NCBI GenBank assembly: GCA_041666865.1
Contig: JBAYGD010000006.1
Location: forward strand, 20,390 to 84,389
Direction of reading: 5' to 3'
DNA length: 64,000 nucleotides
Origin: Candidatus Omnitrophota bacterium
Lineage (GTDB): Bacteria; Omnitrophota; Omnitrophia; Omnitrophales; Aquincolibacteriaceae
In this document: piece by piece, positions 11,007-64,000 of the stretch
Layout: the number at the start of each line of letters is the position of its first letter
Position numbering within the stretch: the first letter of the stretch is position 1
Translations under genes and position numbers: made by a program
The notes under the pieces: model-generated
The model's input: only the letters and a program-made list of their open reading frames with translations
Database searches by the model: none
Told to the model about the DNA's origin: nothing

Positions 11007-11061
11007 GGGACGTCCTTTCAATGGGTGAAAAATGATAGCACACTTGGGAAGGGGTGTTAAG

Positions 11062-12937: not shown

Positions 12938-12940
12938 AGA

Positions 12941-12966: not shown

Positions 12967-13008
12967 CGTAATTGTATTATAACAGAAATCCTTCGGAAGG
13001 GAAAAGCG

Positions 13009-13263
13009 ATGAATACCATGACGGCCGAGGTTTTGAGCGCGCAGGAAATTTGCGAAAAACTCGATATTCCGTATTCCAAAATCAATTATTACACGTACCT
13101 TGGTTTTTTCGAAATCGCCCGGAAGGTCGGCAATAAGCGGTTCTACGACGGCGAACAGGTGGAAAGCCGGTTCCGAGCGATCTCGCGGCTCATGAACGAG
13201 GGCTATCCGCTCTCGCTCATCCGCAAGAAACTGATCGGGGGGCGCGGCGATGGGCTACTATAA
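13009..13263 (+). CDS. Small MerR-family HTH DNA-binding protein without effector domain (BldC/excisionase-like)
   Basis: 84 aa. LSAQEICEKLDIPYSKINYYTYLGF matches the MerR-type [18 protein letters not shown]. Overlaps the downstream gene by 14 nt. Confidence 0.6.
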   Translation: MNTMTAEVLSAQEICEKLDIPYSKINYYTYLGFFEIARKVGNKRFYDGEQVESRFRAISRLMNEGYPLSLIRKKLIGGRGDGLL

Positions 13264-14775: not shown

Positions 14776-14794
14776 CGTTTGAGAGGCCCGGAAA

Positions 14795-16597: not shown

Positions 16598-17561
16598 ATT
16601 CCTTCTCTTTCTCAAACGCCGGGCTTGGCCGATCGCTTTTTCGATCCTGCTGTGTGGGGCGGTCCTTCTCGGGACTCTTTTCTACTGGTTTCCGTTTCAG
16701 GGGGCAAAAGCGCACTCGGTCATGATGGAGCACAAGGTCAGCAAGCTCAAAGAGGAGAGGGAGAGCCTTCAGAAGTTCTACGAAACCCTGAAACAGAAAT
16801 TCCAGGAGCTTGAGGCGGACCGCGACAACGTGCTCGTGCAGACCCGGCAGCTCCTCGGCGAGCGCGAAAAGTACGAGCAGTCCGTGGTCGAGCTCAATGC
16901 GGTGAAGGAAAAACAAAAAACGCTCACCGAAACGAATGCGGTTGTGACCGAGAAAATGACGGCTGCGGAAACGAAGGTCGCGGAGCTGCAGTCGAGCTAC
17001 GACGCTGCCCGGGCCGAGGCCGAATCCTCAAAGGCCAAGCTTGAGCGAACGACCCGCGAGAACGTCGAACTGGCCACGCGGTCTCAAAACACCGAAGCGG
17101 TCATCAATCAATATAAGCAAAAGGCGGAAGAAAACGAAAAATACAGCCCTCTTTTCAACTCCCTGAGCGTGGAGCACGAAGTGCTCAAGGAAAAATACAA
17201 GGCGCTCGAAGCGCGGCTCGGGGACATCCCCGGACAATTCTCTGAAATGGCCAAGGAAAACCAGGTTTTGATCCACGAGACGGCCGACATGCATTACAAT
17301 TTGGGGGTTTTTTACGCCAAGGAAAGGAATTATGAGCGCGCCCTCAAGGAGTTCCAGAAGGCCGTGGATATTGATCCGGGAGACGCCAAGGCCCATTATA
17401 ATCTCGGCTATATCTATGCCGACCACATGCAGGACAGGGCCCGGGCCGAGCTTCACTTCAAGACGTTCCTAGAGCTGGCCCCGGATGACCCCAACTCGGA
17501 CGCCGTCCGGAACTACATTATCAGCCGGGATGTTTTTAGCGCAAAAGTGTTGAAATCCTGA
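16590..17561 (+). CDS. Membrane-anchored coiled-coil plus TPR protein
   Basis: N-terminal TM segment, ~200 aa of heptad-rich coiled coil, and C-terminal TPRs (HYNLGVFYAKERNYERALKEFQKAVDIDP...). Overlaps the secretin stop by 8 nt. Confidence 0.6.
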   Translation: MIRFLLFLKRRAWPIAFSILLCGAVLLGTLFYWFPFQGAKAHSVMMEHKVSKLKEERESLQKFYETLKQKFQELEADRDNVLVQTRQLLGEREKYEQSVVELNAVKEKQKTLTETNAVVTEKMTAAETKVAELQSSYDAARAEAESSKAKLERTTRENVELATRSQNTEAVINQYKQKAEENEKYSPLFNSLSVEHEVLKEKYKALEARLGDIPGQFSEMAKENQVLIHETADMHYNLGVFYAKERNYERALKEFQKAVDIDPGDAKAHYNLGYIYADHMQDRARAELHFKTFLELAPDDPNSDAVRNYIISRDVFSAKVLKS

Positions 17562-49050: not shown

Positions 49051-49502
49051 GAGCGAAATTTCCCTATAAGAAGCGCAGGAAGCGCGTCGGGTGCGGACAG
49101 GGGTCCGGGCACGGAAAAACCTCTACCAAGGGTAACAAGGGACAGAAGGCTCGTTCCGGACAGACGCGCATGCCCGGGTTTGAGGGGGGGCAGAACCCAT
49201 TCTATCGCCGCGTCCCGAAGCGGGGATTTAATAACGCGGCCTTCCAGCGCGACTATTCGATCGTCAATTTGGACAGCATCGAAAAGCTTGGTTTGAGTGA
49301 GGTGACGCCGGAAATCCTCGTGCGCAGCGGCATGGTTCACGACGTGCTCGACGGGTTGAGGGTGCTCGGGGACGGAATACTGACCAAGCCGGTTACGGTC
49401 AAGGCTCATTATTTTACGGGGACCGCGAAAACAAAAATCGAAAGTGCCGGGGGCCAGGCAATCCTCATGGCGCGGCCCGCGACGCCCAGAACACATAAGT
49501 AA
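49047..49502 (+). CDS. rplO: 50S ribosomal protein L15
   Basis: [16 protein letters not shown] motif. No rpmD between rpsE and rplO. Confidence 0.93.
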
Positions 49503-49524
49503 CGCACGAAAGAGACGCATTGAC

Positions 49525-50883
49525 ATGATTAAGGGTTTCAGCAACATCCTGAAAGTGCCGGATCTGAGAAAAAAGGTGCTTTTTACGTTGCTGATCGTCG
49601 TCATCTACCGGATCGGAAGTTTTGTTCCGACGCCCGGGATTGACGGAGGGGCTCTCGGGAGATTTTTCGAGAGCATTGCGCGGACTCCGGGCGGGACGCT
49701 CTTTGGCATCATCGGGATGTTTACCGGCGGCGCGCTGCAGCGGGCGACCATTTTTGCCCTCGGGATCATGCCGTATATTTCGGCGTCGATCATCCTGCAG
49801 CTTTTGACGGTGGTGATTCCTTATCTGGAGAAGCTTGCCAAAGAGGGTGAGGAAGGCCGTAAGAAGATCATCCAATACACCCGTTACGGGACGGTGATCT
49901 TGAGCATCATCCAGACTTTTTTCATCGCGCTGTGGCTCGAAAACCCATACAGCTTCAACGGAACGGTCATCGTTCCCAATCCGGGATGGGGGTTCCGGCT
50001 GATGACGATATTGACCATGACCACCGGCACGGCTTTCATCATGTGGCTGGGCGAACAGATCGACCAGTATGGGATCGGAAACGGCATGTCAATCCTGATC
50101 ACGGCCGGAATCATCGAGAGTATTCCGACGGCCTTTTGGCAGACGTATCTTTTGCTGTCGCCCTTTGACCTGGCTCACCAGCAGCTGGCTTGGTGGAAGT
50201 TTGCGGTGATGTGCTTTTTGTTTGTGACGACCGTGATCGGCGTGATTATGATCATCCAGGGCCAGCGAAAGATCCCTGTGCAGTACGCCCGGCAGATACG
50301 CGGGCACCGGATGTACGGCGGGCAGAGCACTTACTTGCCGATGAAGGTCAACCAGGCCGGGGTGATCCCCATTATTTTTGCCCAGTCGGTGATCTTGTTT
50401 CCGGCGACGATCGCGGGTTTTTTTCCGAAAGCCGGCGCTCTGACCGCTGCGGCCAGGTTTTTGAGCGCGGGAAGCATTTCGTATTCAATTATTTACGCGG
50501 TCTTGATCCTGTTTTTTACGTTCTTTTATACGGCGATTACATTCAACCCGATCGATGTGAGCGAAAACCTCCAGAAATACGGCGGCTTTATTCCGGGGAT
50601 CCGTCCTGGAAAAACGACGGCCGAATACCTGGATTATGTGATGACGAGAATCGCGACTAGCGGGGCTTTTTTTCTGGCTGTGATCGCGCTTCTGCCGAAC
50701 GTGATTTCGTCACCCAAGGTGATGAATATTCCTTTTACGATCGCGAGCTTTTTCGGCGGCACCGGACTTTTGATTATCGTCGGCGTCATGCTGGATGTGA
50801 TGGCTTCGATCGAATCGCAGCTTTTGATGCGCCATTACGAAGGGTTCATCAAAAAGGGAAAGCTGAAATCGAGGCAGCGATGA
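49525..50883 (+). CDS. secY: Preprotein translocase subunit SecY
   Basis: Track ORF trimmed to MIKGFSNILKVPDLRKK. Ten TM segments. Confidence 0.95.
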   Translation: MIKGFSNILKVPDLRKKVLFTLLIVVIYRIGSFVPTPGIDGGALGRFFESIARTPGGTLFGIIGMFTGGALQRATIFALGIMPYISASIILQLLTVVIPYLEKLAKEGEEGRKKIIQYTRYGTVILSIIQTFFIALWLENPYSFNGTVIVPNPGWGFRLMTILTMTTGTAFIMWLGEQIDQYGIGNGMSILITAGIIESIPTAFWQTYLLLSPFDLAHQQLAWWKFAVMCFLFVTTVIGVIMIIQGQRKIPVQYARQIRGHRMYGGQSTYLPMKVNQAGVIPIIFAQSVILFPATIAGFFPKAGALTAAARFLSAGSISYSIIYAVLILFFTFFYTAITFNPIDVSENLQKYGGFIPGIRPGKTTAEYLDYVMTRIATSGAFFLAVIALLPNVISSPKVMNIPFTIASFFGGTGLLIIVGVMLDVMASIESQLLMRHYEGFIKKGKLKSRQR

Positions 50884-51539
50884 AGCTCGTTCTTTTAGGA
50901 CCTCCGGGCGCGGGCAAGGGCACCCACGCCAAGAAGCTCGGCGGGGCCTATGGGCTCCGCCACTTGGCGACCGGCGACATTTTGCGCCAGGAAATCCGGG
51001 GCGGGACGGAACTTGGGGGTCGCGCCAAGGGCGTCATTGAAAAGGGCGGTCTGGTCTCCGATGATCTCATCAACGAGATGATGGCCAAGCAGATCGAGTC
51101 CGGCGGGGCAGACAAAGGCTTTCTTTTGGACGGTTATCCGAGGACGATCAATCAGGCCGAGGCCCTTGACGTTTTTTTGAAGCATCACGGCATCAAGATC
51201 GACGCGGTGATCAATTTCGTGACGTCCGAGCAGGTTGTGATCGACCGGCTGTCTGGCCGCCGGGTTTGCGCGAAATGCGGCGGGAACTTTCATGTTCATA
51301 ACATCCCGCCCAAAAAAGAGGGGATCTGCGATTTCTGCGGAGACGCTTTGGTGCAGCGCAAGGACGATAAGCCCGAGACCGTACGCCACCGGCTCGAGAC
51401 GTACCGCAAAGAAACGAGCCCTCTCATCGAATATTACCGCCAGCAGGGGCTGCTCCATGATTTTCCGGCCGACCAGGGGGTGGAACCCCTGCAGGTCGAG
51501 TTGAGAAAGTTCTTTGAAAAAGCCGGTCTGGTGCAATGA
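50880..51539 (+). CDS. adk: Adenylate kinase (with Cys4 LID)
   Basis: GPPGAGKGT P-loop. CAKCGG...CDFCG zinc LID. Confidence 0.95.
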   Translation: MKLVLLGPPGAGKGTHAKKLGGAYGLRHLATGDILRQEIRGGTELGGRAKGVIEKGGLVSDDLINEMMAKQIESGGADKGFLLDGYPRTINQAEALDVFLKHHGIKIDAVINFVTSEQVVIDRLSGRRVCAKCGGNFHVHNIPPKKEGICDFCGDALVQRKDDKPETVRHRLETYRKETSPLIEYYRQQGLLHDFPADQGVEPLQVELRKFFEKAGLVQ

Positions 51540-52288
51540 TCGCGCTGAAATCAGCGCGCGAAATAGTGATGCTCACGCAGGCGGCCGGAATTGTTAAGAG
51601 AATATTCCAGGCGGTAGAACCGGCGGTTCGTCCGGGGGTGACGACGGGCGAGTTGGACGCCATCGCGGAGAAGGTCATCCGGTCGAGCAAGGCGGAACCC
51701 GCTTTTAAGGGTTACCGTGGCTATCCGAGCGTGGCCTGCATTTCCGTGAACGAGGAAGTGGTTCACGGGATTCCGGGGCCCAGAAAGCTCCTAGACGGGG
51801 ACCTGGTTAGTTTCGATATCGGCGTCAAATGGGACGGTTTTTACGCCGACGCCGCAAGGACCTGGATTGCAGGGCAGGCGGTTTCAAGGGTCCCGCAAGC
51901 TTTGATCGAAGCGGCTCGGGGGGCGTTGGCCGAAACCCTTGGAAGATACAGGCGCGGTTTCCGGGTAGGTGATATTTCCTCCTCGATTCAGCAGCATGTC
52001 GAGGGGCTCGGGTTCGGGGTTGTCCGCGACTATGTCGGACACGGGATCGGAAGAATGCTCCACGAGGAGCCGCAGGTGCCCAACTTCGGCACGGCCGGGC
52101 GCGGCCCGAGGATCGAGCCGGGGCTCGTATTGGCGATCGAACCCATGGTGACGGAGGGGCAGTACGCCGTCGAAGTTCTGCCGGACGGGTGGACGGTGGT
52201 GACGCGGGATCGTACGCTGGCAAGTCATTACGAAGACATGATTGTTTTTACGGAAGAGGGATATCTGAATTTGACGGGGGAGCTGTAG
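51536..52288 (+). CDS. map: Methionine aminopeptidase type I
   Basis: Family-typical metal-ligand residues. Confidence 0.94.
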
Positions 52289-52293
52289 GGATT

Positions 52294-52512
52294 ATGCCGA
52301 AGGAAGACTCCATCGAAATGGAAGGAACGGTGGTCGAGCCCCTGCCCAACGCGATGTTCCGGGTTAAGCTGGACAACGGGCACCGGGTTTTGGCGCATAT
52401 TTCGGGCAAGATGAGGATGAATTACATCCGAATCTTGACGGGTGACCGGGTGAAGCTTGAGCTTTCGCCGTATGACCTGAACCGTGGCCGGATCACTTTC
52501 CGGGTGAAATAA
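52294..52512 (+). CDS. infA: Translation initiation factor IF-1
   Basis: Track ORF trimmed to [24 protein letters not shown] (72 aa, S1-like). Confidence 0.93.
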
Positions 52513-52534
52513 AAAAAAGAAAGCGGGAAATTTT

Positions 52535-52648
52535 ATGAAAGTACGAAGTTCCGTCAAGCGAATTTGCGAGAATTGCAAGATCATCCGCCGAAAGCGGATT
52601 GTGTACGTGATCTGTTCCAATCCCAAGCACAAACAGCGGCAGGGGTAA
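52535..52648 (+). CDS. rpmJ: 50S ribosomal protein L36
   Basis: Not in the track (37 aa). Product [37 protein letters not shown] with the C-x2-C-x12-C-x4-H zinc ribbon. Confidence 0.92.
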
Positions 52649-52663
52649 AGGGGAGCAACTGAT

Positions 52664-53050
52664 ATGCCAAGAATCATGGGTATTGATATTCCGAGGGAAA
52701 AAAGAACGGATGTCGCTTTGCGCTATTTGTACGGCATCGGGAAGACGCTGGCTGTCCGGGTGCTTGCGGAAGCGGGCGTCGATCCGGCGAAGCGCGCCAA
52801 AGACCTGACGGAAAAGGAAGTCTCGGCGATTACCATCGTCATTCAGAAGCACTACAAGGTCGAGGGTGAGCTGCGCCGGGAAGTTCAGTCGAATATCAAG
52901 CGGATGATCGATATCCGCTGTTACCGGGGCAGCCGCCATCTGAAAGGCCTGCCTGTTCGGGGGCAAAGGTCGCACACGAACGCGAGGACACGAAAAGGTC
53001 CGCGCAAGACTATCGGCGGGCTGAACCGTAAGCCGCCTTCGCCCAAATAA
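52664..53050 (+). CDS. rpsM: 30S ribosomal protein S13
   Basis: Family-typical sequence. Confidence 0.95.
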
Positions 53051-53154
53051 CGACACCGAAAGGTGTTATGTTGAGGCCCGACGGGGATGGCCGCGACATC
53101 TCGAGACGCTTTTAAAATGATCCCGATTCTCGTTTAAAAAAGGAAACGATCCGC

Positions 53155-53526
53155 ATGGCAAAGAAAAAGAAGGTCAGACAAGTTTCGCGCGGGGTGGCCA
53201 ATATCCTGGCGAGTTTCAACAATACCGTGATTACCATCACGGATTCGGAAGGCAACACCCTCTGCTGGTCCTCCTCAGGTGCGGCGGGATTCAAGGGGTC
53301 GAAGAAATCGACTCCTTACGCGGCTCAGGTTGCTGCGGAGCAGGCCGCGAAAAAGGCTCTGGCGTTCGGCATGAAGGAAGTCGAAGTCTTTATCAAGGGA
53401 CCGGGGGCCGGCCGCGAGTCGGCGATTCGAGCCCTGCAGATCGGCGGGCTTCAGATCAGCGCGATCCACGACATCACGCCCATTCCGCACAACGGCTGCC
53501 GACCGCCGAAAAAGAGGAGGGTCTAA
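53155..53526 (+). CDS. rpsK: 30S ribosomal protein S11
   Basis: Family-typical sequence. Confidence 0.95.
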
Positions 53527-53529
53527 TTC

Positions 53530-54156
53530 ATGGGAAAATATGTGGGCCCGGCCATTCGCTTGAGCCGGCGCGAAGGTGTGAATCTTTATCTGAAAGGAAG
53601 CCGGCGGGCCTCCGACGACAAAGTTGAAAGACGACTGTCCACGCCGCCGGGGCAGCATGGCGCTTCCAGGAGAAAGCTTTCCGACTACGGAGTCCAGCTG
53701 CGCGAGAAGCAAAAGCTCAAACGGATTTACGGGCTTCTGGAAAGGCAGTTCCATCTCTTTTTCGTCCGTGCGGCTAAAAAACGCGGGGTGACGGGAGAAA
53801 CGCTGATTTCGCTTCTCGAAAAGCGGCTCGATAACGTAGTCTACCGCCTTTTTTGGGCCAATACGAGGCGGGAAGGCCGGCAGATGGTCAACCATTGCCA
53901 TATCTACGTCAACGGCCGGATGGTGAATATCCCGTCCTACCAGGTGCGGGTGGGCGACAAGATTACGGTTCGGCAGCAGGAATCGACCGTGAACCGCGTG
54001 AAGGCCTGTCTTGAGAAGTGGAAGGATTTGCCGATGCCCGAGTGGCTCGCGCTTGACCGGGGTGCGCTTGAAGCGTCGATTTTGAGGGAACCGACCAAGG
54101 CGGATGCGGCCCTGCCGGTCGAAGAATCTTTGATTGTTGAGTTGTATTCTAAGTAA
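53530..54156 (+). CDS. rpsD: 30S ribosomal protein S4
   Basis: S4 domain. Confidence 0.95.
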   Translation: MGKYVGPAIRLSRREGVNLYLKGSRRASDDKVERRLSTPPGQHGASRRKLSDYGVQLREKQKLKRIYGLLERQFHLFFVRAAKKRGVTGETLISLLEKRLDNVVYRLFWANTRREGRQMVNHCHIYVNGRMVNIPSYQVRVGDKITVRQQESTVNRVKACLEKWKDLPMPEWLALDRGALEASILREPTKADAALPVEESLIVELYSK

Positions 54157-54215
54157 TCCGCGGAAGAGCTTTCGCGTGATCTTGAAAAAGATGATCTCTT
54201 AAGAGGAGGAAGGCA

Positions 54216-55238
54216 ATGGGTATCCGCTGGAAAACATTCGAAATGCCAAAGCGTCTGGAAGTCGACAGGGGAACGTTGACGCCGACCTACGGAAAGTTTG
54301 TCGCTGAGCCGTTTGAACGGGGCTATGGAACGACGATCGGCAACGCTTTGCGCCGCGTCTTGATTTCCTCGATCGACGGGGCTGCGGTGACCAGCATCAA
54401 GATCGACGGGATGCTGCACGAGTTCTCGACGCTCGACGGGGTTTTGGAAGACGGGACCCAGATCGTCCTGAACATCAAGCGCCTGGTTGTCAAATACCAC
54501 GGCAAGGGAACGAAAAAGGTCGTGATCGAGGCGGACAAGGCGGGGCCGGTTTTGGCCCGTCAGGTCCTTGCCGACGAGACGGTTGAAATCGTGAACCCGG
54601 ATATGGTGATCTGCAATCTCACGAAGAACGTGAAGCTGCGGATCGAGATGGAAATCGGCCGCGGGCGCGGGTATGTCCCCGCCGAGCGCAATAAGCAGGA
54701 AGGTTCGCCGATCGGCATGATCCCAGTGGATTCGCTGTTTTCTCCCGTTCATAAAGTCAATTTCACGGTGGAGGAGACCCGCGTCGGCCAGATGACCGAC
54801 TATGACAAGCTGAATCTTGAAATCTGGACCAACGGGGCGATGGATCCCGAAGAGTCCTTGCTGTACGCCTCCAATATCCTCCAGCGCCATCTCGACATTT
54901 TCGTCAACTACGGCGAGATTCCGGTCGAGGAGGAGGAGGAAGAGGAGGAGGACCACGCGTTTAAAGATCTGATTGCCAAACCCATCAGCGAGCTCGAACT
55001 TTCGGTGCGCAGCGCAAACTGCCTCGAGGCGGCCAGCATCAAGACGATCGGCGACCTCGTGCAGAAGACCGAAGCGCAGATGCTCAAATATAAGAATTTC
55101 GGGAAGAAATCCCTGGCGGAAATCACGGCGATTCTCACGGCCATGGGCCTGGCGCTCGGAATGAACATTGAAGAGAGGATGAAAGGCAAAAAGGCGGCCC
55201 CGGCGGTTGCAGCGGCGCCTGCCTCGGACAATGCTTGA
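54216..55238 (+). CDS. rpoA: DNA-directed RNA polymerase subunit alpha
   Basis: NTD plus CTD (helix-hairpin-helix). Acidic EEEEEEEE linker. Confidence 0.95.
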   Translation: MGIRWKTFEMPKRLEVDRGTLTPTYGKFVAEPFERGYGTTIGNALRRVLISSIDGAAVTSIKIDGMLHEFSTLDGVLEDGTQIVLNIKRLVVKYHGKGTKKVVIEADKAGPVLARQVLADETVEIVNPDMVICNLTKNVKLRIEMEIGRGRGYVPAERNKQEGSPIGMIPVDSLFSPVHKVNFTVEETRVGQMTDYDKLNLEIWTNGAMDPEESLLYASNILQRHLDIFVNYGEIPVEEEEEEEEDHAFKDLIAKPISELELSVRSANCLEAASIKTIGDLVQKTEAQMLKYKNFGKKSLAEITAILTAMGLALGMNIEERMKGKKAAPAVAAAPASDNA

Positions 55239-55301
55239 GCCGGTAAGACGCGGCATCGAGCTACAATGACGGATCGATAGAAGGGGAGCAGGTCGAGACC
55301 T

Positions 55302-55895
55302 ATGAGACATTCCAGACACGGAAGAAAATTGGGAGTGAAGTCCAAGCACCGCAAGGCGCTCATGCGGAACCTGTTGAAGAACATGGTGCGCTACAAGAAG
55401 ATCCGCACCACCGTGACGCGCGCCAAAGAGGCGAGAGTGTTCATCGATAAGATGGTTCACCTCGCAAAGCGCTCAGACCTGCATGCCCGTCGGCTATTGA
55501 TTTCGGAAATCGGGTGCCCGGAGACCGTTTCGGTCCTGATACGTGAAATCGCCCCGCATTTCAAAAAGCGTAACGGCGGGTACACACGGGTCCTGAAGCT
55601 CGGGACCTCCCGCGCCGGCGATGCCGCGGAGATTGCGCTCCTTGAGTTTACGGAACTGATCGAGCTGCCCAAGAAAAAAGAAAAAAAGCCCAAGAAGGCG
55701 AAAGAAGCCCCCAAAGCCGAAGAGACGAATGAGCCGGCCAAGAAGAAAAAGGAAGCGCCGGAAAAAACGAAGGGGGAAGAGCCTAAAAAGGGCGAGGCGA
55801 AGGGCGAAGAAAAGCCTAAGGCGGAAAAAGAGGAGGCCGAGAAAAAGGGCGGCTTCCTGAGTAAGCTGAGAAAATTCCTCAAAGGCGATGAGTAA
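55302..55895 (+). CDS. rplQ: 50S ribosomal protein L17 (Lys/Glu-rich C-terminal extension)
   Basis: L17 core of ~120 aa plus a ~75-aa KE-rich tail. Confidence 0.93.
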   Translation: MRHSRHGRKLGVKSKHRKALMRNLLKNMVRYKKIRTTVTRAKEARVFIDKMVHLAKRSDLHARRLLISEIGCPETVSVLIREIAPHFKKRNGGYTRVLKLGTSRAGDAAEIALLEFTELIELPKKKEKKPKKAKEAPKAEETNEPAKKKKEAPEKTKGEEPKKGEAKGEEKPKAEKEEAEKKGGFLSKLRKFLKGDE

Positions 55896-57075
55896 CGCGT
55901 CCACATTCGAACTCTCCAGGAAGGTGCTTGCCGTGGCGCCTTCGGCCACGCTGGCGATAGCCGCCAAGGCCAAGGAATTGGTCGCGCAGGGAAAGAAAGT
56001 CGTTTCCCTGAGCGCGGGAGAGCCGGATTGTGACACTCCCTCCTATATCAAGGAGGCCGCGATCGCCGCCCTGCAAAAGGGCATGACCAAATATACGCCG
56101 GTCAGCGGCACGATCGAGCTGCGCAAGGCGATCGTCGCCAAATTTCAGCGCGACCAGAACCTCACTTTTTCTCCCGAGCAGATCATTGTAAGCTGCGGTG
56201 CCAAGCACTCCATTTTCAACGTGCTGTTCGCGCTTTTGAACGAGGGCGACGAAGTGGCGATTCCGTCGCCCTTTTGGCTCAGTTACCCCGAGATGGTGAC
56301 GGTGCTCGGCGGGAAGAGCGTTTTTATCGAGACCTCGGAGGCGTCCGGGTTCAAGATGAGCCCGCAGGACCTGGAAAAGGGGCTGACGCAAAAAACGAAG
56401 GTCCTCATCCTCAATTCGCCTTCGAATCCTACCGGGGGCGTCTATTCCCGGGAAGAGCTTCTCAAGCTCGTCGAGGTCCTCAAGCGCTTCCCGAAGGTCA
56501 TCATCCTTAGCGACGAGATTTACGAGAAGCTCGTTTTTGACGGCCAAAAGCACTATTCGATCGCGTCCCTCGATCCGTCGATCGCGTCGAGGACGGTGAT
56601 CGTCAACGGACACAGCAAGGCCTACGCGATGACGGGCTGGCGCCTTGGATACGCGGCTTGCCCGGATAAGGGGCTCGCCAACGCGGTTTCGAGCATTCAG
56701 AGCCACTCGACCTCCAACCCCACCTCTTTCGCGCAAGCGGGCGGCGTGACGGCCCTCGAGCAAGGGGAGGCGGATGCGGTGAAGCTATGCGCGGTCTTCG
56801 AAAAGCGGCGCAATATTTTCTGCGAAAAGCTGGCGTCCATTCCCCAATTAGTCCCGGTAAAACCCGGCGGCGCGTTCTATGTCTTCGTGAATTCGAGCCG
56901 CTCGGGCATCGACTCGGTCCGGCTCTCGGAGCGCCTGCTTGACGAAGCTCTGGTAGCGGTCGTTCCGGGCAAGCCCTTCGGAAGCGATTCCCACATCCGC
57001 ATGAGTTTCGCGACCTCCCAGGAACAGCTCGACGAAGCGGTCCGCCGCCTCGCCGATTGGTTCGCGAAGCTTTAA
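55888..57075 (+). CDS. Class I/II PLP-dependent aminotransferase (aspartate aminotransferase-like)
   Basis: SNPTG motif and the PLP-Lys context NGHSKAYAMTGWRLGY. Confidence 0.85.
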   Translation: MSNASTFELSRKVLAVAPSATLAIAAKAKELVAQGKKVVSLSAGEPDCDTPSYIKEAAIAALQKGMTKYTPVSGTIELRKAIVAKFQRDQNLTFSPEQIIVSCGAKHSIFNVLFALLNEGDEVAIPSPFWLSYPEMVTVLGGKSVFIETSEASGFKMSPQDLEKGLTQKTKVLILNSPSNPTGGVYSREELLKLVEVLKRFPKVIILSDEIYEKLVFDGQKHYSIASLDPSIASRTVIVNGHSKAYAMTGWRLGYAACPDKGLANAVSSIQSHSTSNPTSFAQAGGVTALEQGEADAVKLCAVFEKRRNIFCEKLASIPQLVPVKPGGAFYVFVNSSRSGIDSVRLSERLLDEALVAVVPGKPFGSDSHIRMSFATSQEQLDEAVRRLADWFAKL

Positions 57076-57121
57076 TCTTTCCGCGTTTCTCCCATCCACG
57101 GGTGCATTCCACTTCATACAC

Positions 57122-57260
57122 TTGATATCCAGTCGGCAAAGAAAGGTTTCTCCAAAACGCGCCAGCTTCGCTCGGAGCTCTTGGACCTCACGGGTCTTTT
57201 GCCGATCTCCTCGTCTCCGCAAGCGGCGCTGATTGTTTTTCCGAAACCTTTCCTTGCCTC
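57122..57260 (+). repeat. Intergenic repeat element, copy 2
   Basis: About 92% identical to 23741..23870, with the same terminal inverted repeats. Confidence 0.75.
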
Positions 57261-57270
57261 CGTTTCTCCA

Positions 57271-57350
57271 GGGGCCATTTCCTAAACGTACAGGCCTTTT
57301 TTTGTTTGCCCCTTATCTATTGAGCAAGGCCTGTACCTGTAGGAAATGGC
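57271..57350. other. Long imperfect hairpin (~24-bp arms GGGCCATTTCCTAAACGTACAGGCC / GGCCTGTACCTGTAGGAAATGGCCC, ~30-nt T-rich loop)
   Basis: Read directly. The right arm contains the ATG annotated as the mfd-like start. Confidence 0.5.
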
Positions 57351-59292
57351 CCCATTGTTTTCGTTGCCTGTTTCAGCTAACATAACTTCCATGTTTGAAA
57401 AGGTGCGGCGGATCAAAACCGGAACGGTCATGGAGCGCGAGAGCCTTGCCGAGCTCCTGAGGGGCTTTCGCTACGAAAAACGGGAGGCGGTATCGCGCCC
57501 CGGCGAATTCGCGTCGCGCGGGAACATCGTCGATATTTATCCGGTCACTTACCGCACGCCCGTACGGCTCGAATTCGAAGGGGACACGCTGGCCTCCATC
57601 CGTGATTTTTCGCCCGCCGACGGGAAATCCCTGGCTTCTTTCGACGAAGTCTTCCTGATTCCGGTTACGCCTGCTTTCGCGCGTAAGGCCGGACGCCTTC
57701 AGGCGGAACTCGAGTCCTTCGAGCCCCTGACCGAACTGCGAGATCTCCTGCCTGGTGATTTTGTCGTTCACCTCAAGTACGGGATCGGGAAATTCCTCGG
57801 CACCAAGAATCTCCAAACTCAGGGCGAGCGCAAGCGCCATCTGGCGATCGAATACGCAAACCAGGAGATCCTCTACCTCGAAATCCACGAACCCCTCGAG
57901 CGCTACATCGGGGGAGAGGGGCGCGCCCCCAAGCTGAGCAAACTGCACGGCAAAGAGTGGGAGAGGGTGAAGGAGAAGACTCGCCGCGCGATTTCGGGCA
58001 TGGCCCACGAACTCCTCGAGATTCAGGCGAAGCGCAGCTTCGGTAAGGGCTACGCCTTTCCGGCCGACAACGACTGGCAGAGGCAGTTCGAAGCGCAATT
58101 TCCATTCGAGGAGACGCCCGACCAGGAGAAAGCGGTCGAAGAGGTCAAGCGGGACATGGAGTCTCCCAAGGCCATGGACCGCCTTTTGGCCGGAGACGTC
58201 GGCTACGGCAAGACGGAAGTCGCTATGCGGGCAGCATTTAAGGCGGTTATGGGCGGCCGGCAGGTCGCGATTCTTGTCCCGACGACCGTTCTTGCGGAGC
58301 AGCATTATCTGGTTTTGAAAAAACGCCTGAAAGATTTTCCAGTCACCGTCGAGGTCCTGTCTCGCTTCCGTAGCCAAAAGGAACAGTCCGGCATCGTCCA
58401 GTCTCTCAAAAAGGGGACCACCGACATTTTGATCGGGACCCACCGGTTGCTCTCGAGCGATCTTGTTTTCAAGAACCTTGGCCTCGTCATCATCGACGAG
58501 GAGCAGCGATTCGGCGTGCAGCATAAAGAACGGCTCAAACACTACCGGACGTTTATCGACGTCCTTGCCCTCACGGCGACCCCGATTCCGAGGACCCTTT
58601 ACATGTCGCTTGTGGGAGTTCGCGATATGTCGGCCATCAATACGCCTCCGGCCAACAGGATGCCTGTCGACACGACCGTGACCGAATATGACGACCGGAT
58701 TGTCCGGCGGGCGTTTGATCTCGAACTCAGCCGGGAAGGGCAGATTTACTTTGTCCACAACCGGGTCCAGTCGATCGAAAAAGTCCACGAACACCTGAGT
58801 GAGCTTCTGCCCAAGGTGAGGTTCGGGGTCGCACACGGGCAAATGGGGGCGCACGAGCTCGAAGCCGTCATGCAGGCTTTCCTCGAGCGGAAGATCGACT
58901 GCCTGATCGCGACGAATATTATCGAGGCGGGTCTCGACATTCCGAACGTCAACACCATCATCGTCAACCGCGCCGACCTCTTCGGCCTTGCCGATCTCTA
59001 CCAGCTCCGGGGCCGGGTGGGTCGGTTCCCGGACCGCCGCCAAGCCTATGCCTATTTTATGGTGCCCAAGAACTGGGTCATGACCCAGGATGCCACCAAG
59101 CGTCTGGACGCCATCGAGCGCTTCACCGAGTTGGGTTCCGGATTCAAAATTGCCTTGGAAGACCTGGAGATCCGCGGAGCGGGGAATCTGCTTGGGACGG
59201 AACAGAGCGGATTCATCCATGCTGTCGGATTCGACCTCTATTGCCGTATGCTCCGTCAGACCCTCGAAGAAATGAAAAAGAGTAAAAAATAG
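57346..59292 (+). CDS. mfd: Compact Mfd-like transcription-repair coupling factor (UvrB-homology D2 fragment, RNAP-interacting domain, SF2 translocase; lacks canonical N-terminal D1a/D1b/D3 and C-terminal D7)
   Basis: GEFASRGNIVDIYP (UvrB-like). DFVVHLKYGIGKF...LSKLHGKEWERVK (RID). GDVGYGKTEVAMRA, DEEQRFGV and QLRGRVGR helicase motifs. 648 aa versus ~1150 for canonical Mfd. Start codon uncertain (57346 or 57391). Confidence 0.7.
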   Translation: MAPLFSLPVSANITSMFEKVRRIKTGTVMERESLAELLRGFRYEKREAVSRPGEFASRGNIVDIYPVTYRTPVRLEFEGDTLASIRDFSPADGKSLASFDEVFLIPVTPAFARKAGRLQAELESFEPLTELRDLLPGDFVVHLKYGIGKFLGTKNLQTQGERKRHLAIEYANQEILYLEIHEPLERYIGGEGRAPKLSKLHGKEWERVKEKTRRAISGMAHELLEIQAKRSFGKGYAFPADNDWQRQFEAQFPFEETPDQEKAVEEVKRDMESPKAMDRLLAGDVGYGKTEVAMRAAFKAVMGGRQVAILVPTTVLAEQHYLVLKKRLKDFPVTVEVLSRFRSQKEQSGIVQSLKKGTTDILIGTHRLLSSDLVFKNLGLVIIDEEQRFGVQHKERLKHYRTFIDVLALTATPIPRTLYMSLVGVRDMSAINTPPANRMPVDTTVTEYDDRIVRRAFDLELSREGQIYFVHNRVQSIEKVHEHLSELLPKVRFGVAHGQMGAHELEAVMQAFLERKIDCLIATNIIEAGLDIPNVNTIIVNRADLFGLADLYQLRGRVGRFPDRRQAYAYFMVPKNWVMTQDATKRLDAIERFTELGSGFKIALEDLEIRGAGNLLGTEQSGFIHAVGFDLYCRMLRQTLEEMKKSKK

Positions 59293-59499
59293 CGCTATAG
59301 GTTGATCGCCAATGATTTATGTGTGTCCTCGCTGATCGAATTCCCCCCTAAATTCCGCTTCTCCCATTTGTATAATTCAACGTTGTCAGGTACATTTGAA
59401 CGTAAAAGAGGTACTTTTCTCAAGTACGTTATAATGAGGTGTTTTTGCCTCGAAAGGCAGCGGTTTTGACCTGTGTGCTTTAGATCCGGGAAAGCTCTT

Positions 59500-62400
59500 A
59501 TGATCCATCGTAGAGTCCTTCGAATCGTATCCCTCTTGGTGACCGTCTCCTTTCTGGTGACAGATTTCACCCTGCCCGTTGGTCTTGCAGCAGACGAACT
59601 GGGGCCTGTTGCCGCTCAGAAAACGCCGACTGTGCTTTCGGATGATCTTGCCGCAGTTGCGATTCCATCCTCGATCGGAAAAATTCAGGAATTTTGGCAG
59701 GGGACAAGCGGCGATACCGTGGTTCTGGTCCAGGACGCGCATGCGATCCCTGCAGCTCAGCGCAGCATCAAGGCCTTGATCGAGCATTTCCAAAAGACCT
59801 ACGGCCTGAGTTTTGTCGGTCTCGAGGGCGCAGCATCGGAGCTCGATCCCCTGATTTTTAGGAGTTTTCCGGATCGGGAGATCCTGCGTAAAACTTTCGA
59901 CGAATATTTCGACCGGGGAGAGCTGACCGGCCCTGTGGCGGCAGCGGTGCTCGGAAATGAAGCTTTGGAATTCCAGGGCATTGAGGACTGGGACACGTAC
60001 GAACAGGGATTGGCCCTGTATTTAGCCGCCGCTAAAAAACAGCCGGAAATTGCCGCCCAATTGCTCGCCCTCGGCAAGGATCTCGAAGCGCGTAAGGATA
60101 TGATTTTCTCACCCGAACTTCGCGAAATCGATCGCCTGCTCGCTGCTTTCAACAACAATAGCAAGGGCCTCCTCGAAGTCCTCAAGAAGCTTGCCGCGGT
60201 GAAACCTCCGGAGCCGGGCACTGAACTTGCAATCCTCCTCGAAGAAAGCTCCCGGTTGGGCCGGGAGCAGCCGTCACTTGAGATGGAAGTGAAAAGCGTG
60301 TCCAGAGAAGTGGAAAAACAGCTGACGGACCCCAGCGATGTTAAGGCTTACCAGCAGAAATTCCAGGAGTTTCAGACGTCCGGAATCACTCCGCAGGAGT
60401 TCATGCTTTTCCTGAAAGAACTGGCCGCAGGCAGGGGGTGGCCGGTCCGTATTTCCGAAGGCCTGGCCGAGGCCGTGGGGAAACAGAAAAAGATGCGTGA
60501 TATTCAGGGGACCCATTTTTTTACCGACTTTGAAGTCTATGCCTCTTCGGTCAAAGCAGCGCTTTTCAGGACCGACGACGAGCGGAAGCTCGATGAGCGG
60601 AGCCGCCTGCTCGGTCTCCTCGGCAGGTTCACGAAGCTGGAGCTCAACCAGGAGGATTGGCGGGAAATCAAGGACACGTCGGACTCCATTTTTAGTCCAT
60701 TCATGCCAGGACCGGAATTGCCGGCTCTTTTTTTCTACCACTTTGCTTTCTACCGGAACGCCGAGCAGCGCGACGAGGCATTCATCCGGAACCTCTTTGA
60801 AGGGATGAGAACGAGAGGCGAACATTCGGCGCTTGCCGTTTCGGGCGGATTCCACACGGAAGGACTCGTCCGGCTACTCAAAGAGCGAAAGATCTCCTAT
60901 GTGCTCGCCATGCCTGCTATTTCGGAAATCCCCGGCCAGACGACTTACACCGAACAAATGCGCGGGAATGTTTCGTGGAAGGATTACTTTGAAGTCGAAA
61001 ACGGAAAGGTGAATCTCTACAAGGCTTTTGTCCGCGCCCTTCGGGACAACCTGATTGCCCATAGTCCTGAAAGATCTGTTTTGCTCAAAGAATGGCGAGA
61101 CCAAATCCTCCGTGACCTTGCGGCCTCAGGAAAGACGGTTGATGCCGAGCGATACGCTTCTTTCCTGGACGAAATTTCTGTTCGGGCGAATCATGATTCG
61201 CTCCAACGGCGCCTGACGGATGCCTACGCAAAAATCGACCGGTTCATCGACGGCTTGATGCGTCTTGAGTCCGAAGGCAACCTGGACCCCCAACACGTCA
61301 TGCAACTCGTCCGGCCTGCCACGATCGGTGCCGGAGTCAGCAACGGATCCAATCTTGCTCCTGGGGCGATGGCTTCCGTCGAGGTCCGCTTGCCCGACGA
61401 CACTATAGTTCGAATGTTTCCCGAGGTCATTGGCGAGGATGCCGATGCGCAAAGTGCGACCGCCCGGGGCGAGATAAGGACCGTAGAATCCGGGGTGAGA
61501 GTGCCCCAAGAAATCTTCGATCCCTTGACTGCCTTCGGAGAACCCTCCGTCCGTGTGCCTTCTTCAAGAGAGTTGTCGCGCGTGATGATGTCAGCCTATG
61601 CTTTAGCGCAACCGGAAATCGATGTTGATCAAAGCCAACTTATGGCCCGCGGGTCATCCGTTCTTCCAAAAGGACTTTTACTCATTTATCCGACTGCGAC
61701 ACCTATGAGCGAAGACATCCTTTTTGAAATTCTCGATCGGGCGTTACGCTCTGGTTATGCTCCAACGGATATCAGGATCTACAGCGGGGAAGCCATCCGT
61801 GCCCAAGACATACTCAAGCGACACTACTCGAAGATCTGGAGCGCAGCCAACGATGGGTTCGGGGCCTTGGCGGCAGATGCGCAAGAGGCCATCAGAACTT
61901 TATACCGGGGCATTCTGCCGGCCTCCTTCGGCGTGGTGTATGACGACAAGTTAGTTTTTCCGGTCAGCGTTTTGGAGGATTGGGGACTGAACGAGGCTGA
62001 GATTGAACGGATGGCGGTCGAAGCGGAGCGAAACTACGGGGCGCCGGAAGGGCTTCAAAAAATTAACAGCGATGTCTTTTCCGTCGCCGTGAAGCTCCCC
62101 GATTCAGGAAAGGTGCCGGGCAGTCTAAGAGGAAAACCGGTTATCTTGCTCAACGTTTTTTATCCGCGGCTAAAGAATGATTTCGAAAACCCTTCTGCTA
62201 AGACGATTGCCGTTGTCCTGCAGGCGATTCCGGGGGTTGCACCGGTGGCTTGGCACTCTATGTTGTCGCGCTATCGCGGGGGATCTGACCCCAAGACCGC
62301 GGCGGAAGGCAGTTTGAGGCGGGATGCTTACGATCGTGTCATTCCCGTGACATTCCCGGTAGATGTCCATAACAGTTTTGTCCATCTCAACGATGTGGGA

Positions 62401-64000
62401 GATTTTGAACAGGAAAGCAGTGTCTGGTTCCGCTCGGAACAGAGAAGCGAAGGCCTTAGCGAGCAAGAATATTATGCAGCCTATCAGGCCGCACCGCCGA
62501 CCTTGTCTTACGGCGAGTTCCTGGCGCTTCAAGAGCAATATCGGGCCAGAGCCCTCCATATGAAATCCAGCGTTGTTGCCCGTGACCGGATTGCGGTGCC
62601 TTCAACGCCCGTTGTGCGGCGGGAGGATGTTTCCGAACAGGCTAAGGAAGCCGGCGACAACTCGGTTCGCCGCGGCGAAGTTGAATTGTGGATTTTGGCG
62701 GCCGGGACGGGCGGACGAGCTTTCGGATATAAAATTCCGGAGTCTCAAAGGATCCGGGGCTTGATTCCGATTGCCCGTCTTGCCGGGGGCCTGAGGTCGG
62801 GGTTTGAAATCGCTGCCGCGCATGCGCGCTGGCTGGGCAGGACCGTCGCGGGAGATCCAGGAAGAATTCCGGTCCGTTACTGTACGAGCCGTCTTTCAGA
62901 CGCCGCTATTCGTCGGGCCTTGCAGCGATATTCCCATCCAAACTTGCTTACTTCCGTCACCGGAGACATTCCGCGCCTGCAGCCGTACCGGGAGGATTTG
63001 CAGGCAGAGCCCAAAGTTCCTCCGCATCAGATTGACAGGATTCTCGAAAACAACGGCGGTGCGCCGGGCCAGGTTTTTCGCTTTCAAGATGGCAGCATGA
63101 GTCGCAAACCTTTGGGTGCGCTTGCCGCCTTTGATGCCGCGTTTCTGGACGGCAGTTTGTGGGAAAGTTACCGGAAAGGGGTCCGGTATTTGTGGGTCGG
63201 CAATGACAGCGATTTGGGGATGAGCCTGGATACCGCCTTGCTCGGCCGTTTGATTGAGAGCGGAAAGGAAATGCTCTCGGTGATGGTGGAAAAAGACACG
63301 TATTACAAAATGCAGATCAATGGGGAAGACTCCTGGGTTCAGGTTCGTAACGGACAAGTTTTTCGTCATCATCTCCCGGAGGGATTTGGGGCGGGCTATC
63401 GGCTCGACTCGGGTTTGGAAATCACAAAAGAAGGCATTCCTTTCACACTCCCTTCCGGTCAAATCCAGGTGGTACTGGAAAAAGGAGGCGTGCGGGTCAA
63501 CTTGGAAGGGAAGACGGTCATTCTGGAACCGTCCGAATTGCCGAAGGACTTTCCTCAGGATCAACTGCATGAGTTCAACTCCAATCAAACGATCCTCAGC
63601 TTGGAAGCGCTCTTTGCGGCCTATCAGACCGATCCCCGCGAATATCCGAATCTCAGCTATGCCGAAAAGGAAAAACGCCTTGCGACGTTCCATCAGCAAA
63701 TTCGTCCCCCCTTCATGGAAGTCAAAGAAATCCCCGATCCGTCCGAAAAGACCGGCAGGATGAAATTTGGCATCCAGATGACGCATCCTGTCTGCAGACT
63801 CGCGGGTGTCCTCAGGACCGAATACGTGGCTGTTGACCGTGATGCGCGAAGCACGCCGTCCGGGTACGGGTCCGTCAAGGATTTGAATGCGCAGGACTAT
63901 CAGCAGGTTTTTGAGCGCGCCTTTGGCGGCAAACTCGATTTCGAGGACCCTCAAACCGGCCAAATACAGGAAGATGTTCAGATCCCGCCGGACGCGTTGC
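59500..64000 (+). CDS. Very large secreted or membrane-anchored protein, 3'-truncated by the window (at least 1500 aa), with a UDP-sugar pyrophosphorylase (UDPGP)-like region near residues ~1040-1300
   Basis: Frame 1 reads ATG 59500 to the window end with no stop (translated by hand; an in-frame TGA lies upstream at 59467). Absent from the track, which appears to list only stop-terminated ORFs. N-terminus MIHRRVLRIVSLLVTVSFLVTDFTLPVGLAADE is signal-peptide-like. Motifs ELWILAAGTGGRAFGYKIPE and RYLWVGNDSDLGMSLDTALLGRLIE resemble the UDPGP family. A 355-aa antisense shadow ORF lies at 62896..63963. Confidence 0.7.
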   Translation, partial: MIHRRVLRIVSLLVTVSFLVTDFTLPVGLAADELGPVAAQKTPTVLSDDLAAVAIPSSIGKIQEFWQGTSGDTVVLVQDAHAIPAAQRSIKALIEHFQKTYGLSFVGLEGAASELDPLIFRSFPDREILRKTFDEYFDRGELTGPVAAAVLGNEALEFQGIEDWDTYEQGLALYLAAAKKQPEIAAQLLALGKDLEARKDMIFSPELREIDRLLAAFNNNSKGLLEVLKKLAAVKPPEPGTELAILLEESSRLGREQPSLEMEVKSVSREVEKQLTDPSDVKAYQQKFQEFQTSGITPQEFMLFLKELAAGRGWPVRISEGLAEAVGKQKKMRDIQGTHFFTDFEVYASSVKAALFRTDDERKLDERSRLLGLLGRFTKLELNQEDWREIKDTSDSIFSPFMPGPELPALFFYHFAFYRNAEQRDEAFIRNLFEGMRTRGEHSALAVSGGFHTEGLVRLLKERKISYVLAMPAISEIPGQTTYTEQMRGNVSWKDYFEVENGKVNLYKAFVRALRDNLIAHSPERSVLLKEWRDQILRDLAASGKTVDAERYASFLDEISVRANHDSLQRRLTDAYAKIDRFIDGLMRLESEGNLDPQHVMQLVRPATIGAGVSNGSNLAPGAMASVEVRLPDDTIVRMFPEVIGEDADAQSATARGEIRTVESGVRVPQEIFDPLTAFGEPSVRVPSSRELSRVMMSAYALAQPEIDVDQSQLMARGSSVLPKGLLLIYPTATPMSEDILFEILDRALRSGYAPTDIRIYSGEAIRAQDILKRHYSKIWSAANDGFGALAADAQEAIRTLYRGILPASFGVVYDDKLVFPVSVLEDWGLNEAEIERMAVEAERNYGAPEGLQKINSDVFSVAVKLPDSGKVPGSLRGKPVILLNVFYPRLKNDFENPSAKTIAVVLQAIPGVAPVAWHSMLSRYRGGSDPKTAAEGSLRRDAYDRVIPVTFPVDVHNSFVHLNDVGDFEQESSVWFRSEQRSEGLSEQEYYAAYQAAPPTLSYGEFLALQEQYRARALHMKSSVVARDRIAVPSTPVVRREDVSEQAKEAGDNSVRRGEVELWILAAGTGGRAFGYKIPESQRIRGLIPIARLAGGLRSGFEIAAAHARWLGRTVAGDPGRIPVRYCTSRLSDAAIRRALQRYSHPNLLTSVTGDIPRLQPYREDLQAEPKVPPHQIDRILENNGGAPGQVFRFQDGSMSRKPLGALAAFDAAFLDGSLWESYRKGVRYLWVGNDSDLGMSLDTALLGRLIESGKEMLSVMVEKDTYYKMQINGEDSWVQVRNGQVFRHHLPEGFGAGYRLDSGLEITKEGIPFTLPSGQIQVVLEKGGVRVNLEGKTVILEPSELPKDFPQDQLHEFNSNQTILSLEALFAAYQTDPREYPNLSYAEKEKRLATFHQQIRPPFMEVKEIPDPSEKTGRMKFGIQMTHPVCRLAGVLRTEYVAVDRDARSTPSGYGSVKDLNAQDYQQVFERAFGGKLDFEDPQTGQIQEDVQIPPDAL

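Follow-up and report, generated by a model that had tools for sequence, protein, structure and literature searches.

The phylum Omnitrophota is known for very long proteins that have been described as 'multi-enzyme metabolic clusters' (Nielsen & Lui 2026, bioRxiv 10.64898/2026.06.07.730766). According to the same preprint, 94% of the long Omnitrophota proteins carry a signal peptide or transmembrane (TM) helices, and genes of type II secretion systems or type IV pili (T2SS/T4P) lie within about 20 open reading frames (ORFs) of 13 of the 14 largest giants (bioRxiv 10.64898/2026.06.07.730766). Domains often seen in such proteins include PPDK_N, NUDIX and Lysine_decarbox (West-Roberts et al. 2023, bioRxiv 10.1101/2023.11.21.568195). 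Here we describe a large gene that begins at position 59500 of a 64,000-nucleotide stretch of contig JBAYGD010000006.1 from a Candidatus Omnitrophota bacterium (this whole stretch is called the window below) and that runs off the 3′ end of the stretch. Its product is composed of a hydrophobic signal, a conserved N-terminal head, a nucleoside diphosphate kinase (NDK)-like module, a UDPGP-like module, about 370 unassigned residues, a pyruvate-kinase barrel, two LOG-like domains and about 1,200 further unassigned residues, in this order. The reading that we favour, with slightly better than even confidence, is that of an exported multi-module effector or surface enzyme of a host-dependent bacterium.

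The protein resembles the described giants in several respects. It comes from the same phylum, starts with an N-terminal signal and unites five unrelated enzyme superfamilies in one chain. Furthermore, this protein and its family share with the giants the Lysine_decarbox/LOG, PPDK_N, kinase and HEAT/TPR elements, and the bodies are mostly unique in sequence. A preliminary description of the window, made by a model from the letters without database searches, had called a giant exported protein with a nucleotidyl-transferase-like module unusual; this judgement did not hold, exported multi-enzyme long proteins being an already described class in Omnitrophota. Unlike the giants, the protein counts 4,129 amino acids (aa), which is under the 10,000-aa threshold of their catalogue, and possesses at most one weak internal TM candidate; unlike at 13 of the 14 largest giants, no T2SS/T4P genes are found within about 20 ORFs of its gene. 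TIKI/TraB/Ere-like heads, NDK, UDPGP and pyruvate kinase are mentioned in neither of the two Omnitrophota giant-protein preprints, and the literature searched contained no paper linking Omnitrophota to the TIKI/TraB/ChaN/erythromycin-esterase superfamily. The type of protein is already reported for the phylum; what we did not find in the literature searched is the head family and its assignment, the cassette of NDK-like and UDPGP-like modules, and relatives that swap their middle.

Frame 1 of the interval 59500-64000 comprises 1,500 codons with zero stops, and the remaining five frames contain 18 to 57 stops in the six-frame translation. At the local base composition, the chance of 1,500 open codons is around 7e-27. 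With ten Pfam-supported housekeeping genes of the same window taken as the codon-usage reference, the codon log-likelihood of frame 1 was +0.196 bits per codon, compared with -0.59 to +0.06 for the other frames. Of the ten blocks of 150 codons, nine scored positive; at an inter-module linker (codons 601-750) the score dropped to about zero, the signal being weakest over aa 601-1200. The GC content at third codon positions (GC3) is 0.61 in the large gene versus 0.68-0.78 in the neighbouring housekeeping genes. ORFs that run antisense or in alternative frames within the interval gave no family matches and score lower in codon usage, and were rejected as genes; no tandem repeats were found in the interval. 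These data bear out the preliminary description, which had proposed an unterminated giant frame from ATG 59500: no in-frame stop appeared between 59500 and 64000 when edge-truncated ORFs were allowed, and both codon usage and GC3 were checked and the frame is coding. The same description had suspected that the supplied ORF track reports only terminated ORFs, which the ORF-listing tool's own description confirmed. The absence of the frame is an artefact of the track, not biology, since ORFs running off an end go unlisted. Three starts are possible (Table 1). The NCBI record uses ATG 59500 (4,129 aa) and the JGI record GTG 59539 (4,116 aa); the former is more plausible because it retains the basic n-region of the signal-like segment.

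The end of the gene was located on an identical public contig, as the preliminary description had suggested by extension of the sequence. An exhaustive HMMER search with aa 640-1500 retrieved a protein of 4,116 aa that matches the 861 residues of the query without a single difference, and the cluster of this match contains the 4,129-aa NCBI record MFA6600115.1, 'MAG: pyruvate kinase [Candidatus Omnitrophota bacterium]' (full-length protein P0146; MAG, metagenome-assembled genome). Neither the exact protein of the upstream neighbour nor an exact 40-mer search of genome and metagenome contigs led to a longer contig, which was reached via this full-length protein. Positions 49500-64000 are 100% identical over 14,501 nt to the ENA contig k141_1160274 (122,380 bp), on which the large gene extends over 12,390 nt to a genuine stop and encodes 4,129 aa; the window thus holds 36% of it. 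The source samples are ERZ27249449 and SRR6484324. That the frame could be a chance frame, a pseudogene remnant or an assembly chimera is scarcely credible. The source is metagenome-assembled, the portion inside the window matches no curated model and GC3 is below that of the neighbours, but the chance probability and the coding codon usage given above argue strongly the other way. Five recognisable enzyme-superfamily modules lie in one frame, hundreds of homologous heads stand at the N-termini of long ORFs, the identical sequence is present in the ENA assembly, the Logan assembly and the JGI record, and members at ≥90% identity derive from a second NCBI MAG.

The first 31 residues form the strongest hydrophobic segment of the protein (Kyte-Doolittle value 2.77 over a 12-mer). 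A basic n-region is followed by a hydrophobic core (aa 9-30) and a G-L-A site, and 48 of the 61 family members share this n-h-c arrangement, with A-x-A-like sites, in agreement with the signal-peptide-like start that had been noticed from the letters. In the AlphaFold2 prediction, aa 2-21 are helical. Elsewhere in the protein there is one weak hydrophobic stretch, the TM candidate mentioned above (aa 3144-3164). The charges flanking the core are basic on the N-terminal side and acidic on the C-terminal side; because of this distribution and of the A-x-A-type sites in the family, the C-terminal bulk of the chain is predicted to be exported, and we infer that the protein crosses the inner membrane. 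In a distant subfamily of heads (P0045-P0049 and P0069), the motif A-E-A-(G/S/N)-F-W-(E/S)-(D/E)-R-R directly follows the predicted cleavage site; this motif is not present in the subfamily of the window protein.

The signal is followed by a conserved head with an alpha/beta core, into which the model places a helical insert of about 280 aa (aa 164-440), with a helical extension behind the core. In an alignment of 12 heads, which reaches down to 19% identity, the residues D79, H81, Q87, E109, E162, R424, G449-G-F-H452 and G455 are invariant. The AlphaFold2 model built from this alignment (pLDDT 77, pTM 0.64) places D79/H81 at the end of strand 73-79, E109 past strand 105-108 and H452 past strand 443-449. 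Enzymes of the TIKI/TraB-PrgY/ChaN/Ere superfamily use a 2His/2Glu catalytic site, which consists of E3900-x-H3902, E3930 and H4030 in RRSP, and includes H85 and E113 in Bcr135 (PMC6254334). The head resembles members of this superfamily (RRSP of MARTX, EreB/EreC, Bcr135/136, HopBA1) in its parallel beta-sheet core with the catalytic residues at strand ends and in the succession acid-x-His, Glu and His. D79-A80-H81 corresponds to the E3900-x-H3902 pattern of RRSP, with Asp as the first acid in the head, and the spacing of 28 residues between H81 and E109 is the same as between H3902 and E3930 of RRSP and between H85 and E113 of Bcr135 (PMC6254334).

The head also departs from this superfamily: it matches no Pfam profile, its first acid is Asp, and it carries the long helical insertion. 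Comparison of all head members with Pfam at E≤10 produced no consistent family; PF01963, PF05139 and PF04187 searched against the 12 aligned members gave one PF04187 match only (E 0.19), and the head profile found nothing significant among the PDB sequences. A Foldseek search of the model against the PDB yielded no match at E≤0.001; EreC ranked first, without significance. We nevertheless hold it to be very probable that the head has the TIKI/TraB/ChaN/Ere-superfamily fold, and, with lower confidence, it is probably a catalytically active, divergent hydrolase, as the invariant residues suggest. The roughly 1000 residues that had initially been described as lacking any recognisable family therefore resolve into this head and the NDK-like module, separated by a poorly conserved linker (low pLDDT at aa 606-640) for which no homologs were found.

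The head defines a family of its own. In a word-indexed search, all 49 homologs were 'hypothetical' proteins of Omnitrophota (870-2,583 aa), and the alignments were limited to residues ~10-660 of the query. The motif [VI]xGGFHT[EQS]GL was confirmed at 235 loci in GTDB species genomes. Among the 80 of these loci that were listed, most carry the label Candidatus Omnitrophota, four are labelled Elusimicrobia and the rest come from 'uncultured bacterium' MAGs. Several head loci occur per genome, for instance five in Ca. Taenariivivens baikalensis. The head was N-terminal in 88 of the 88 ORFs at the listed loci; complete head ORFs range from the head only (~630-810 aa) to 4,015 aa, and about 30 more exceed 3,500 aa up to the edge of the fetched DNA. 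By these searches the head family is almost confined to Omnitrophota, multi-copy, and followed by unrelated bodies. The closest relative (P0002) has a head 46% identical to that of the window protein and a similar last 290 aa (36% identity, E 6e-42), with nothing shared in between. Since head and C-terminal domain are retained among the closest relatives and the whole middle is swapped, an exchange of cargo in the middle of the chain, behind a conserved head and sometimes before a conserved tail, is suggested.

The shared C-terminal domain (aa 3842-4129; L001 21524-22387), alpha/beta in appearance from its sequence, has no Pfam match, and besides P0002 only one 305-aa metagenomic fragment (62% identity) carries it. 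We rejected it on this count as a family-wide signal for secretion or anchoring.

The first module behind the linker was recognised with a profile built from it and 12 relatives (A3). Searched against the PDB, this profile found 109 sequences at E≤1 (best 1.4e-12), and the best 60 of the 109 are all nucleoside diphosphate kinases. The alignment covers both halves of the NDK fold, including the N-x-x-H motif; an insertion of about 110-130 aa separates the two matched halves. Small relatives of the module match PF00334 below threshold only. At the profile level, the module is homologous to NDK. The active site of NDK comprises K12 (I-K-P-D), Arg88, Arg105 and Asn115 in the standard numbering. 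As in NDK (PF00334), the family of the module shows an N-x-x-H-x-S/D phospho-His motif, an H-Y motif and the arginine of G-S-I-R-x-D, and its members keep the Lys of I-K-P, two Arg, Asn and His. The copy in the window retains H962, aligned to the catalytic His of NDK, and R940. Unlike NDK, the module is about 275 aa long instead of about 150 aa, and this copy lacks the I-K-P Lys, one Arg and the Asn three positions before His; the substitutions (K to Y730, R to L922, N to S959) fall at positions that are at least 90% conserved in its own family.

The second module belongs, by the evidence of its profile and its relatives, to the UDPGP superfamily by descent; its clade is divergent, and the copy in the window shows additional changes. 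The profile of the module together with nine relatives from giant proteins (A2), with no canonical enzyme in it, found only UGPase/UAP/USP chains in the PDB (29 at E≤1, best 4.6e-17), whereas the single sequence matched fungal UGPases weakly (E 0.11). More distant relatives match PF01704 at 1.3e-30 and 7e-31, and several of them are named UTP-glucose-1-phosphate uridylyltransferase by NCBI. A word-indexed homolog search with aa 640-1500 returned nothing, a direct BLAST comparison with P0049, which belongs to the head family and has a Pfam UDPGP match, gave insignificant matches only, and a single-sequence AlphaFold2 model of aa 640-1500 (pLDDT 35) was discarded. The preliminary description had read motifs of UDP-sugar pyrophosphorylases in this region: the superfamily homology stands, but a direct match to PF01704 was not obtained at E≤1 from the 1500 residues, and the assignment was saved only by the profile and by transitive evidence.

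The functional residues of Aspergillus nidulans UGP (AnUGP, PDB 8c0b; PMC10470519) were mapped onto the module through HMMER alignments. Like the UGPase/UAP/AGX/USP enzymes of PF01704, the module, of similar length (about 490 aa), shows homology over the nucleotide-binding (NB) loop, the G-H-x-D and N-x-D-x-L-G region and K-G-G. Its NB loop, aligned to that of UAP, reads A-G-T-G-G-R (aa 1068-1073), compared with G-G-x-G-T-x-x-G in the superfamily and g-G-t-x-g-R in the clade. The first Gly is thus replaced by A1068, at a position described as restricted to glycine in UGPs (PMC10470519); G1069 and R1073 are present. The canonical P-K, whose Lys (K135 in AnUGP) is the phosphate-binding Lys (PMC10470519), aligns to P1080-E1081, and this Glu is invariant across the clade. 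The phosphate-binding H228 of G-H-G-D aligns to A1207 (in G1206-A1207), where nine of nine relatives have His. N256 corresponds to N1235, the Mg-binding D258 falls on S1237, with D1236 and D1238 on either side, and K292-G-G corresponds to K1328-G-G within a conserved E-K-G-G motif (aa 1327-1330). The catalytic K403 is probably the invariant K1460, aligned by eye only; K1409 is also kept. Two other positions conserved to at least 90% are changed in this copy (N to Q1161, R to H1429). The module therefore differs from PF01704 enzymes by Glu for the P-K Lys throughout the clade, by Ala for His, Ala for Gly and Ser for the Mg-binding Asp in this copy, and by its fusion behind an NDK-like module within a 4,129-aa protein.

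These substitutions raise the question of whether the protein is a largely non-catalytic scaffold, in which the NDK-like and UDPGP-like modules would be pseudoenzymes serving a large surface protein as nucleotide- or sugar-binding or structural units, and the head, possibly with the pyruvate-kinase and LOG-like domains, would be catalytic. The six changed positions of at least 90% conservation (Y730, L922, S959; A1207, Q1161, H1429), together with A1068, speak for it, as does the codon-usage signal, which is lowest at aa 601-1200. It is weakened by the retention of H962, R940, E-K-G-G, K1409, K1460 and most of the Gly-rich loop, by a frame that stays open across 12.4 kb, and by the transfer of residue roles from distant enzymes by alignment alone. 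We consider such a scaffold unlikely.

The NDK-like and UDPGP-like modules form a recurrent cassette. A search over all plus-strand frames, checked against P0057, detected it in none of the 88 ORFs at the 80 listed GTDB head loci. In the exhaustive search, 12 cassette-bearing giants begin with the head, and at least 13 large proteins have the two modules in this order. The cassette is also present in stand-alone proteins of ~640-910 aa that have no hydrophobic segment at the N-terminus; a Desulfobulbaceae MAG encodes one of these. P0053 is a relative whose cassette retains the consensus of the family.

The same cassette lends itself to a different arrangement, a membrane-tethered cytoplasmic metabolon in which the hydrophobic segment would remain uncleaved as an anchor, and the NDK-like, pyruvate-kinase and UDPGP-like modules would regenerate nucleoside diphosphate (NDP)-sugars for envelope glycans. 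By established biochemistry, the conversion of NDP to nucleoside triphosphate (NTP) with ATP or phosphoenolpyruvate (PEP), followed by that of NTP and sugar-1-phosphate to NDP-sugar, makes a chemically coherent cycle, and all the substrates are cytoplasmic. The stand-alone cassettes of other bacteria, which lack the hydrophobic signal and one of which is named UTP-glucose-1-phosphate uridylyltransferase by NCBI, fit this arrangement, and sugar-metabolism modules dominate one group of the Omnitrophota long proteins (bioRxiv 10.64898/2026.06.07.730766). However, the charge distribution around the hydrophobic core and the A-x-A-type sites of the family favour export of the bulk of the chain, catalytic residues are replaced in this copy, and no glycosyltransferase module was detected in the protein. 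Moreover, the 2026 preprint withdrew an intracellular reading of its own largest protein on topology grounds (bioRxiv 10.64898/2026.06.07.730766). The metabolon is thus conceivable and rather unlikely.

Beyond the window edge, the chain carries a partial pyruvate-kinase barrel of about 190 aa (aa ~1935-2127; Pfam 3.6e-23, PDB 1e-13). The match covers positions 64-251 of the 328 of the barrel model, and the Pfam search of the full protein reported no other model of the pyruvate-kinase family, the C-terminal domain included; a genuine pyruvate kinase combines the complete barrel with that domain in about 470-600 aa. Two LOG/'lysine decarboxylase'-type domains follow (Pfam 1.3e-18, PDB 3e-18). 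The recognisable modules of the body are all nucleotide-handling.

In the reading that we favour, that of an exported multi-module effector or surface enzyme, Sec would carry the protein over the inner membrane. The head would be an active hydrolase, a peptidase or an esterase, which may work at the envelope or at the host interface or may trim its own polypeptide, and the nucleotide modules would have nucleotides and nucleotide sugars beyond the cytoplasm of the producer as substrates or ligands. The chemistry of the body could comprise NDP to NTP, NTP and sugar-1-phosphate to NDP-sugar, PEP-driven phosphorylation and the hydrolysis of nucleotide N-glycosides; the most plausible site for it would be in or on a host or prey cell. 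Because residues conserved in their own families are lost, the NDK-like and UDPGP-like modules of this copy may bind substrates and not turn them over.

Several results weigh against this reading. The call of export comes from simple hydrophobicity and inspection of A-x-A sites only, and enzymes that require ATP, UTP or PEP make little sense in the periplasm. The 1,500 residues in the window have no match at E≤1 to any Pfam or NCBIfam model, and about 1,600 of the 4,129 aa are without any assignment by Pfam, PDB and homolog searches. Lastly, canonical activity of both cassette modules is doubtful because key catalytic residues are replaced: the equivalents of K12, R88 and N115 of NDK in the first, and in the second those of H228 and of the first NB-loop Gly, along with the clade-wide Glu for the P-K Lys.

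The head and the signal might also be the delivery and processing device of an Omnitrophota-specific polymorphic effector system. The intact head hydrolase would be exported first, and would then anchor or activate the chain at the host interface or cleave off an interchangeable cargo, here the NDK-like, UDPGP-like, pyruvate-kinase and LOG-like modules, which would manipulate nucleotide pools. Such a system would be functionally analogous to MARTX or polymorphic toxins and evolutionarily independent of them. By analogy, the protein would share with these toxins the plan of a large secreted multi-enzyme chain, in which one end is conserved, the cargo varies and a TIKI-fold module is present; several members of the TIKI/Ere superfamily are secreted effector domains of larger toxins. 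Unlike in MARTX, searches of this protein revealed neither RTX repeats nor a cysteine-protease autoprocessing domain nor a type I secretion signal, and the TIKI-like domain stands at the N-terminus as the conserved head instead of being part of the cargo. This more specific proposal is a speculative one, and we regard it as improbable.

Table 1. Positions of the large gene, its modules and nearby features (window numbering; aa, residues of the product counted from ATG 59500)
Feature	Position	Strand	Basis or remark
Large gene, first 1,500 codons (36%)	59500..64000	+	open coding frame; further 7,889 nt past the window edge
Nearest upstream in-frame stop	TGA 59467	+	translation
Possible starts	GTG 59473, ATG 59500, GTG 59539	+	sequence
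Predicted Sec-type signal peptide, aa 1-31: MIHRRVLR / IVSLLVTVSFLVTDFTLPVGLA / ADE	59500..59592	+	hydrophobicity
Conserved head, aa ~45-610	59632..61329	+	TIKI/TraB/ChaN/erythromycin-esterase-like alpha/beta core
D79-A80-H81, first acid and first His of the putative 2His/2acid site	59734..59742	+	invariant
E109, putative catalytic Glu	59824..59826	+	invariant; 28 residues past H81
G449-G-F-H452, second putative catalytic His motif	60844..60855	+	invariant
Poorly conserved linker, aa ~611-711	61330..61632	+	low pLDDT at aa 606-640
NDK-like module, aa 712-986	61633..62457	+	profile versus PDB
UDPGP-superfamily nucleotidyltransferase-like module, aa 991-1479	62470..63936	+	profile versus PDB
Intergenic leader, 207 nt, Mfd-like gene to large gene	59293..59499	+	sequence
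GspF-like	3785-5050		
GspK-like	7080-8297		
PilM/PilN-like fusion	8311-9786		
Secretin	14795-16597		
TPR protein	16590-17561		

The gene is preceded by SecY, Adk, Map, S13, S11, S4, RpoA, L17, an aminotransferase and an Mfd-like helicase, and is followed by a SurA-like peptidyl-prolyl isomerase, PdxA, KsgA and Dus. In a related Omnitrophota genome (L017 599-5352), the Mfd-like, SurA-like, PdxA and KsgA genes are directly contiguous, and in the window genome the 12.4-kb gene sits between Mfd and SurA (window 57346-64000; L001 7892-25445). The large gene is therefore in an insertion-like position, and this contiguity in the relative, together with the lower GC3, suggests an insertion beside the ribosomal-protein operon. 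The region of this operon is reported to be recurrently hypervariable in Omnitrophota (2026 preprint, bioRxiv 10.64898/2026.06.07.730766). A functional link to the Mfd/SurA neighbourhood was considered and rejected, both genes adjoining without the large gene in the related genome. The 207-nt leader in front of the large gene contains no consensus of a sigma-70-type promoter or an intrinsic terminator; two TATAAT hexamers were seen by eye (~59371-59376 and ~59430-59435), without -35 partners.

The Mfd/TRCF-like helicase itself (57346-59292; 633-648 aa) has the UvrB-interaction, RID and helicase domains. Mfd of E. coli counts about 1,150 aa, and the Mfd-like protein of the window is roughly half that size. 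A 615-aa antisense ORF overlaps the helicase gene (57373-59220) and is probably not a gene.

T2SS/T4P-like genes are present in the window at 3785-17561, about 42 kb and roughly 40 genes away from the large gene, and the EF-Tu, EF-G and ribosomal-protein genes lie between them. The preliminary description had named this machinery as a candidate exporter; none of the tests made here connects it with the large protein. Within the ~20 ORFs flanking the large gene no T2SS/T4P genes were found, the 10 kb downstream holding surA, pdxA, ksgA, dus and others. Inside the T2SS/T4P-like cluster, a 495-aa ORF (11342-12829) has no Pfam match and is overlapped by a 505-aa antisense ORF. Directly upstream of the cluster, a sensor histidine kinase of 1,086 aa (148-3408) combines CHASE, several PAS, GAF, HisKA and HATPase_c domains.

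There is nothing remarkable in the hidden ORF as such, a gene cut off by the window edge that GenBank already lists under a misleading name. The label 'pyruvate kinase', which derives from the partial barrel, covers about 5% of the 4,129-aa chain, and related giants are labelled 'UTP--glucose-1-phosphate uridylyltransferase' in like manner; such automatic product names could mislead metabolic reconstructions of Omnitrophota MAGs. The recurrent NDK-like/UDPGP-like cassette, with its Lys-to-Glu change in the nucleotide-binding region, occurs both in giants and in stand-alone proteins elsewhere. The head, with at least 235 loci and a size far below that of the giants, provides a handle for biochemistry on the long exported proteins of Omnitrophota.

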